From positions 1 to 63,105 of the IMG/VR virus record IMGVR_UViG_3300036831_000039: 63,105 nt of DNA; one strand, 5' to 3'. The position numbers were made by a program, and so were the translations under genes. The DNA is from a virus (Duplodnaviria > Caudoviricetes). The notes below the pieces were generated by a model. The model saw only the letters and a list, made by a program, of their open reading frames with translations. It did no database searches and was not told the DNA's origin. Below, in pieces: positions 62,936 to 63,092 of the stretch; the stretch's first letter is position 1, and every line of letters starts with the position of its first letter.

Positions 62936-63092
62936 ATGAAAAAGTTAATAGGTATTATTGCGTGTTTAATTAGTATACCTTTATCTGCACAGGTGTGGTG
63001 GGCTCCACAGGTAATTAGTGTTACATCCCTTCCTAGTACGTGTGTTCCTGGGGGGCCATTATACCAGCTAGTGTCTGGAGGGCCTCCTGCTA
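62936..63092 (+). CDS. 5' end of the fibre gene that continues at 1-2242 (signal peptide)
   Basis: AAGGT RBS; MKKLIGIIACLISIPLSA-QVWWAPQ is in frame with ORF 17..2242. Confidence 0.85.
62977..63092. repeat. Terminal direct repeat, copy 2
   Basis: Identical to 1-116. Confidence 0.95.

Follow-up and report, generated by a model that had tools for sequence, protein, structure and literature searches.

Tailed-phage particles are taken as assembled wholly in the cytoplasm. In the viral record IMGVR_UViG_3300036831_000039 of the IMG/VR database (Duplodnaviria; Caudoviricetes), a fibre-like gene nevertheless appears to encode a secretory (Sec-type) leader, and this locus raises the question of whether the gene product leaves the cytoplasm and, if so, whether it ever becomes part of a virion. 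The whole stretch of DNA analysed, positions 1 to 63,105 of the record, is referred to here as the window, and all of its genes given with coordinates lie on the plus strand. A first-pass annotation of the window had proposed that receptor-binding proteins are exported and either join the virions or are displayed or released by the infected cell. The present analysis, which draws on sequence comparisons, retains one part of this proposal: export of the protein from the cytoplasm is likely, as its leader is conserved. The virion role is not supported, because the window contains a leaderless fibre candidate and because the position and number of leader-bearing genes vary. Given export, we clearly favour an accessory function over docking on finished particles. 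The complete statement, that the leader is a genuine Sec-type signal peptide and that the exported protein plays an accessory role in glycan binding, stands in our estimation at about even chances.

The window represents a circular assembly. Its bases 1–116 are identical (100%) to 62977–63092, a terminal overlap that was rechecked by script, and the unit length of the circle is 62,976 bp. The 13 bases outside the circle (63093–63105) mismatch the overlap, are the reverse complement of a stretch approximately 25 bases upstream, and look like a small hairpin-like assembly artefact at the contig end. On the linear contig the open reading frame (ORF) of the fibre-like gene is open at its 5' end (2..2242) and has a GTG at window position 17, which is codon 20 of the joined ORF. 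Across the join, the ORF extends from an ATG at 62936–62938 to the stop at 2242 and encodes a product of 760 amino acids (aa) that starts MKKLIGIIACLISIPLSAQVWWAPQ. This ATG is the first possible start, since none of the eight codons between it and an in-frame TAG (62909–62911) is ATG, GTG or TTG. According to the first-pass annotation, the ORF at 17..2242 really begins with MKKLIGIIACLISIPLSA followed by QVWW after circularisation, and the joined ORF shows the same, with the predicted cut between the two. The public gene call for this protein (P0001) comprises 639 aa and starts at an internal GTG even further in than codon 20. As this call is truncated, the leader was indeed concealed by the genome join, as had been suspected. 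The evidence from ribosome-binding sites is neutral with respect to the two starts: a core Shine-Dalgarno motif, present in 28 of the 54 chosen genes of the window, precedes neither the ATG nor the GTG, and the ATG has only AAGG approximately 9 nt upstream.

The leader comprises 18 codons (MKKLIGIIACLISIPLSA; 62936..62989). Its n-region (MKK, residues 1–3) carries a net positive charge. The h-region (LIGIIACLISI) consists of 11 uncharged, hydrophobic residues, is shorter than a membrane span, and is followed by a proline. The c-region (PLSA) ends at a predicted signal peptidase I cleavage site after Ala18, with Ala at position −1 and no Pro at +1, so that Gln19 would become the first residue of the mature protein. 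The basic n-region, hydrophobic core, signal-peptidase-I-like site and following Gln that had been described earlier are all present. The bases that encode the start of the predicted mature protein (QVWWAPQ...; 62990..63092) duplicate window positions 14–116. N-termini were also scored with a heuristic that asks for an n-region of net positive charge, at least eight consecutive hydrophobic residues without charge, and a cleavage site with a small amino acid at −1 and a permitted one at −3. It passes five of the 54 chosen genes, namely those of the 760-aa protein, the protein encoded at 13258 (see below), a holin-like protein, a lipobox protein and, weakly, the DNA polymerase, compared with 152 of 10,800 shuffled N-termini (1.4%). 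Taken alone, this result is suggestive of a signal peptide. The leader lacks the twin-arginine (RR) motif of a Tat signal. A lipoprotein signal, which would be processed by signal peptidase II, was considered and rejected: just six hydrophobic residues precede the IIAC at residues 7–10, and the Cys is absent in the related protein P0122.

Conservation provides the main and stronger argument that the leader functions as a signal peptide. We counted as relatives those proteins that share N- or C-terminal modules with the 760-aa protein beyond the common fibre repeats (P0122, P0121, P0123, P0254 and P0344; P0121 is located on a 40.8-kb contig). All five carry an equivalent leader, in which the charge, the hydrophobic run and the small residue at −1 are constant and the sequence has diverged. 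In all five, Gln follows the predicted cut, marked here by a slash (LHA/Q in P0122; TLG/Q, AWA/Q, MHA/Q and LRA/Q in the others). The first-pass annotation had proposed to check whether homologues start at the downstream GTG; none of these five does, and all keep the leader. P0122, which has 68% identity in the C-terminal part, reads MKKLGKWLLPLVLTVGGTSFLHA/QVWWMQ and retains the mature start QVWW. When its ...FLHA/QVWWMQGVQSVNSLPATC is compared with ...PLSA/QVWWAPQVISVTSLPSTC of the 760-aa protein, the leader has drifted and the first mature residues are constant. Consistently, the Ala-Gln pair at the cut and two Cys residues are invariant in all four sequences of a four-way alignment (A4, Q5, C22, C46). 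Such drift of a leader next to unchanged first mature residues argues for the type of evolution seen in signal peptides, and is unlike that of a docking helix or a non-coding spacer.

In the wider families that share single modules with the protein, predicted leaders are the exception. They occur in 11 of 109 Met-started proteins matching the fibre repeats, in four of 140 matching the ARW motif (see below), in 16 of 76 matching the C-terminal domain (60 are without), and in three of 70 metagenome ORFs with a complete N-terminus. With the N-terminal 150 residues as query one relative was retrieved, P0121, and with the C-terminal 157 residues 81 proteins that share the C-terminal domain. When the N-terminal 153 residues were used in an exhaustive HMMER search, 419 proteins matched at E <= 0.001, almost every one of them via a single short motif unit, and the 80 loci kept from a metagenome scan with the N-terminal profile matched almost solely through the ARW motif. 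Searches of IMG/VR with the N-terminal query returned one locus, which matched in the ARW motif only, and no close relative; a portal query found no match there, and a profile built from the 760-aa protein, P0122 and P0121 found two loci, of which one encodes a leaderless 332-aa protein and the other is cut off by the contig end. A metagenome contig from an unrelated phage-like source (L023, 1918–9626) contains a major head protein match (phrog_371) and, 3.5 kb downstream of this capsid gene on the same strand, a leader-bearing 1,079-aa protein with the fibre motif. Judged by this contig, the predicted trait of leader-bearing fibres is present beyond one clade.

The predicted mature protein (742 aa plus stop; 14..2242) starts with a small two-Cys module. 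After it come a unit with the ARW motif, which is common among phage fibres, then the fibre repeats and a central part, and a beta-sandwich domain closes the protein at its C-terminus. The repeats (~452–892; residues ~151–297) belong to a widespread phage tail-fibre repeat: of 8,000 candidates scored, 6,564 proteins matched it at E <= 0.001, and phage records matched as well. The local identity of these matches reaches 81%, and they cover 11–42% of the query, the protein's own truncated call P0001 excepted. The beta-sandwich (~1988–2209, the last ~75 residues) resembles PF25692 (Phage_depo_C) when the last 213 residues are the query, with 24.8 bits and an E-value of 3.1e-05 at a cut-off of 25, and PF25692 is precomputed on several proteins that share this C-terminal domain. 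The whole protein has no match in Pfam, PHROG or NCBIfam, and the family searches recognised no docking domain in it. Peptidase_S74 gave no Pfam match, and for the C-terminal sorting domain of the type IX secretion system (T9SS) neither a Pfam match nor a relevant NCBIfam match at E <= 0.1 was obtained. The ESM Atlas places the protein in viral clusters with T4_gp9_10_N or Phage_depo_C, which is a lead only, and an AlphaFold2 model of the N-terminal 153 residues built on four sequences was poor (pLDDT 47.3). By its predicted domain content, the body of the protein is composed of modules of phage receptor-binding proteins, combining fibre and depolymerase types, and the earlier description of it as fibre-like holds.

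A search of a genome collection for relatives of the 760-aa protein yielded a single locus, in a chromosomal setting of a Bacteroidia metagenome-assembled genome (L005, 4359–6731). The 790-aa protein encoded there shares the C-terminal domain of the 760-aa protein and carries a leader-like segment that ends VHA/Q. The gene adjoins a histidine kinase/LytTR pair and a gene for a second leader-bearing protein (6813–7625), and its neighbours are ordinary cellular genes. The 790-aa product has the appearance of a secreted, fibre-like protein that belongs to the cell itself.

Among cultured phages, Tunturi_1 and Tunturi_2 of Tunturiibacter (PP887698.1, PP885685.1) are the nearest; both are podophages of Acidobacteriota. 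With genomes of approximately 63 kb, a homologous portal (24% identity) and a homologous nozzle-like protein (32% identity), they resemble the phage of the window. Five proteins of Tunturi_2 are leader-bearing by eye: gp12 (1,190 aa), gp13 (annotated as tail fiber), gp14 (pectin lyase), gp16, and gp17 (virion structural protein; 1,280 aa). In four of the five (gp12, gp13, gp16 and gp17) the leader ends A/Q, as does that of the 760-aa protein. No leader was seen by eye in the Tunturi_2 terminase, portal, capsid, scaffold, gp11, adaptor-like gp31 or nozzle-like gp32. Tunturi_2 gp17 contains CHB_HEX_C_1 and Fn3_assoc domains, both of which are typical of secreted bacterial glycosidases. There are, however, differences to the window: the Tunturi phages have no homologue of the 760-aa fibre, and their leader-bearing genes form one block after the head genes, whereas the gene for the 760-aa protein lies between portal and scaffold. 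Among the early genes of Tunturi_2, gp79 (L086, 23010–24209, minus strand) is labelled a tail protein and has an N-terminus (...KILLLSLLLTGC) that resembles a lipoprotein signal with a lipobox; both the place and the label are odd for a tail protein.

With a profile of the nozzle-like protein, five related viral contigs were identified. Two leader-bearing ORFs are found in the late module of G001 (94% complete; 47 ORFs of at least 150 aa), three in that of G002 (100% complete; 43 ORFs of at least 150 aa) and one in that of G003, a fragment (L089). Two partial sequences (L090, L091) showed just a weak match on a 235-aa ORF and were left uncounted. In G001, G002 and the window, leader-bearing genes occupy the slot between portal and scaffold. 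None of the five related viral records contains a homologue of the 760-aa protein, and across the relatives the number of leader-bearing genes lies between one and five, with the genes spread over three different slots. A clade of short-tailed phages of approximately 60 kb, which includes the Tunturi phages, is on these predictions characterised by late operons that encode fibre and beta-helix proteins with leaders. The first-pass annotation had singled out the window's fibre as the best candidate for an undescribed assembly system; as a one-off this claim does not stand, as the pattern recurs in related phages.

The window itself encodes a second leader-bearing late protein (526 aa; 13258..14838), which reads MKKFILTLFVIVFPLSLQA/TTFG at its N-terminus, with the leader at 13258–13314 and a beta-helix or pectin-lyase-like body. 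The earlier claim that a tailspike at this position is also leader-bearing agrees with this appendage-like protein. Its leader is followed by a conserved N-terminal domain of ~90 aa, and the N-terminal 109 residues, leader included, share 38% identity with Tunturi_2 gp12 from residue 1. The same domain also directly follows the leaders in L087 and L088, and the distal parts vary. An AlphaFold2 model of the N-terminal 141 residues (three sequences) was poor (pLDDT 39.9) and draws the leader as a helix; the ESM Atlas places the protein in head-binding or pectate-lyase clusters, again a lead only. The ATG of this gene abuts the stop of a gene for a leaderless 294-aa protein (12373..13257), which directly follows the nozzle-like gene and has a conserved N-terminus and a variable C-terminus. 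Over its first 133 residues the 294-aa protein is 41% identical to its counterpart in G001 (L087, 14278–15543), and in a four-way alignment of the window and three relatives the counterparts are syntenic in all four genomes. Although it has no family match in Pfam, PHROG or NCBIfam, this protein is a candidate for the ordinary tail fibre of these phages.

The gene for the 760-aa protein is embedded among head genes. Upstream of it lie the portal gene (60385..62397; phrog_156, E 3e-09; 24% identity to the Tunturi portal over 93% of the query) and a gene for a leaderless 106-aa protein (62604..62924). On the other side, scaffold-like genes and the gene for the major head protein (3890..4993; phrog_9953, E 5.4e-09) are located, and the head genes are followed by two SU10-adaptor-like genes and the 1,312-aa nozzle-like gene. 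The stop of the upstream gene (62922–62924) precedes the ATG at 62936 by 11 nt, and the gap to the downstream gene is 16 nt. With this spacing, the fibre-like gene looks co-transcribed with the late genes. A moron-type insert with its own promoter and terminator was considered and rejected, as promoter-like and terminator-like sites around the gene are not above the counts in shuffled sequences. The gene 16 nt downstream (2259..2504) encodes a leaderless 81-aa protein that consists of a stand-alone K1-lyase_C domain (PF24146, E 1.4e-09, 38.7 bits, cut-off 27), a domain that forms the C-terminus of a phage lyase specific for capsules; the small protein could act as a chaperone or a partner, or represent a tip that has become detached. 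The 106-aa protein has a 119-aa homologue in L087 (318–677; likeness by eye), and in both the window and L087 this conserved protein without family match is encoded directly after the portal and directly before leader-bearing genes.

The lysis genes (22126..23397) comprise a GH108 endolysin with PG_binding_3 (22126..22656; domain match), a 68-aa two-helix holin-like protein (22663..22869) and a 138-aa protein with lipobox-like LFSC as candidate for an outer-membrane spanin (22981..23397), the latter two labels being read from the sequence. The composition of this cassette is in keeping with a host whose envelope has two membranes and a periplasm. Although Gln follows the cut, the core Shine-Dalgarno motifs in 28 of the 54 chosen genes make a typical Bacteroidota host less likely.

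Several known systems resemble parts of this picture. Ordinary leaderless phage tail fibres have the same repeat units (up to 81% identity) and the same ARW motif near the N-terminus. Approximately nine in ten of them lack a leader, however, and the 760-aa protein has a leader and a two-Cys module in place of their short N-terminal segment. The mosaic adhesive trimer (MAT) fibres of Bdellovibrio bacteriovorus are described as exported proteins with a signal peptide, a conserved beta-rich N-domain of 130 aa, a phage-like fibre and swapped tips (Nat Microbiol 2024, PMC10769870). The 760-aa protein has a comparable layout of leader, N-terminal module and phage-like fibre, but the likeness is one of architecture only: MAT fibres are encoded by the cell and not by a phage, and an S74 chaperone-protease forms the end of 13 of the 21, whereas a Pfam search finds none in the 760-aa protein. 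WceF of Pantoea stewartii is reported as an exported trimeric beta-helix of tailspike fold that trims the cell's own exopolysaccharide (EPS; J Biol Chem 2021, PMC7949094). It offers a model for a possible role of the protein encoded at 13258 more than for the 760-aa fibre, and differs in its Tat instead of Sec signal and in its chromosomal gene within an EPS cluster.

Phage genes with leaders are also on record for Porphyromonas gingivalis, where phage proteins carry Sec/signal peptidase I leaders whose cleavage exposes Gln in keeping with the Bacteroidetes Q-rule, and where these genes were read as a use of host secretion to modify the envelope (Microbiome 2023, PMC10367356; Front Microbiol 2018, PMC5837995). 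Unlike the protein studied here, the leader-bearing genes named in the available parts of these reports encode proteins of unassigned function, capsid proteins and spanins, and fibres or tailspikes are not among them. Most leader-bearing proteins of the clade described above likewise have Gln behind the predicted cut, including those at L092 10170–10670 and L089 7327–8439, even though the cultured relatives infect Acidobacteriota and not Bacteroidota. The Q-rule may reach beyond Bacteroidota; Acidobacteria are not mentioned in the main text of the Q-rule paper.

Other exported phage envelope proteins with leaders, of the lambda Bor and T5 Llp/Cor type, are encoded in or beside tail-fibre regions, and some of them block receptors. 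Lom, likewise, is a leader-bearing protein encoded among the lambda tail genes (PMC12309495). All of these are small outer-membrane proteins or lipoproteins and often expressed from prophages, whereas the proteins of the clade have 500–1300 aa, contain fibre or spike modules and are encoded in the late operon. Phage-encoded exported proteins are in this respect a known kind, and what is new here are the fibre and spike modules and the placement within the late operon. No tailed-phage fibre or tailspike with a Sec leader was found described in the literature surveyed, the scope of which did not extend to supplements (the Tunturi annotation tables, Matrishin Supplementary Data 4). The terms 'signal peptide' and 'mass spectrometry' are both absent from the main text of the Tunturi paper (Microbiome 2025, PMC11924767); PMC12571629 and PMC13274417 deal solely with endolysins, and in PMC3517404 the mention is confined to the reference list.

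For the role of the exported protein we favour an accessory one because a leaderless fibre candidate follows the nozzle gene, because the leader-bearing genes shift in number and position, because the 760-aa protein lacks a homologue in the five related records, because Tunturi gp17 has CHB_HEX_C_1 and Fn3_assoc domains, and because a chromosomal Bacteroidia gene for the same C-terminal domain has a leader-like segment. The varying number and position of the leader-bearing genes would suit accessory cargo at least as well as core parts of a tail. A number of observations weigh against this interpretation. The residue at −3 of the leader is Leu, which is permitted but not the commonest, and the crude heuristic also passes 548 of 5,000 shuffles (11%) of the protein's own first 45 residues. 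Packing in the late operon gives the gene the look of a virion gene and not of a classic moron, and as no enzyme domain is recognisable in the 760-aa protein, masking of receptors by it is a guess. The evidence from Cys residues is weak, the mature protein encoded at 13258 having a single one. Moreover, a conserved domain after the leader combined with variable distal parts, as in proteins of the 13258 type, is the usual signature of virion docking, and in Tunturi_2 the leader-bearing proteins are the sole large fibre- or spike-like proteins among the annotations. These last points would rather suit an alternative that we regard as possible but unlikely, in which the protein is exported, cut and folded in the periplasm and docks on particles filled with DNA in the cytoplasm only when holin, endolysin and spanin mix the compartments at lysis. 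The host-recognition proteins of the clade would then, with similarly low probability, be Sec substrates with a pyroglutamate N-terminus and disulfides, and the final assembly step would occur beyond the cytoplasm. Docking at lysis shares its leader evidence with the accessory role, and the body of receptor-binding-protein modules, the embedding of the gene in the late operon, the ATG at 13258 that abuts the stop of the leaderless fibre gene, and the domain conserved after the leader in four phages all agree with it, too. However, association with the virion is without support, the window and its relatives already possess a leaderless fibre candidate, the place and number of leader-bearing genes differ from one relative to the next, and lysis would presumably leave only a short time for mixing. 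We know of no precedent for an exported fibre that docks on a particle, and none was found in the literature.

That the 760-aa protein stays inside the cell as a cytoplasmic virion fibre, perhaps of the head or neck, is in our view improbable. In this case either its hydrophobic N-terminal helix would help the protein to dock or trimerise, or the true start of translation would be the GTG located 19 codons further downstream. The position of the gene in the head module, between the portal and capsid genes, is what one might expect of such a fibre; neither start has a core Shine-Dalgarno motif, versus 28 of 54 chosen genes, and the leader at 13258 is drawn as a helix, if in a poor model. A docking helix would conserve its sequence, though, and the leader drifts with its charge, hydrophobic length and small −1 residue retained, next to conserved residues after the cut. 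In addition, the upstream ORF stays open in the orthologues, the leader pattern recurs on unrelated bodies within one lineage, and structural proteins of the same genomes carry no leader. Least probable of the four, and very unlikely in absolute terms, is a protein that remains anchored in the membrane or displayed on the surface of the infected or lysogenic cell, as a lipoprotein via Cys10 or by an uncut signal anchor, where it could act, as a cell-owned type of adhesive fibre taken over by the phage and similar to the MAT fibres, in the exclusion of other phages or in cell-cell contact. The lipobox-like IIAC at residues 7–10 has a parallel in P0344 (FIAC at residues 12–15), the C-terminal domain has a chromosomal homologue in Bacteroidia, and secretion of phage-like fibres that combine a leader with a conserved N-domain is on record for bacteria (PMC10769870). 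Yet the six hydrophobic residues ahead of Cys10 are few, Cys10 itself is absent in P0122, the 11-residue h-region is too short for a membrane anchor, and neither a T9SS C-terminal sorting domain nor another sorting family was found.

If the accessory role that we favour is correct, the gene for the 760-aa protein would be transcribed along with those of the late head and tail proteins. Its product would pass through SecYEG in an unfolded state, lose the leader by cleavage after Ala18 and reach its final fold in the periplasm. Cleavage would expose an N-terminal Gln, which could cyclise to pyroglutamate, and the conserved Cys36–Cys60 pair could form a periplasmic disulfide. The leader-bearing proteins might then bind the host surface or nascent polysaccharide, and the beta-helix members might cut it, acting from the periplasm and, after lysis, as free proteins. 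By masking or destroying receptors and loosening the matrix, they could prevent the loss of progeny on debris and keep rivals out.

Automatic gene calls lose the true start of genes that span the join of a circular contig, as exemplified by P0001, and the fold alone is routinely taken as enough to annotate a fibre or tailspike protein as part of the virion. If the whole clade secretes such proteins, either many 'tail fibre' labels in soil viromes would stand for exported accessory proteins that act on receptors or matrix, or appendages could be added outside the cytoplasm. The cultured Tunturi phages share the trait, and the question can be answered at the bench, where docking outside the cytoplasm would, if true, be directly testable. 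Either outcome bears on the prediction of host ranges, on how phages handle polysaccharide-rich hosts and on phage annotation.

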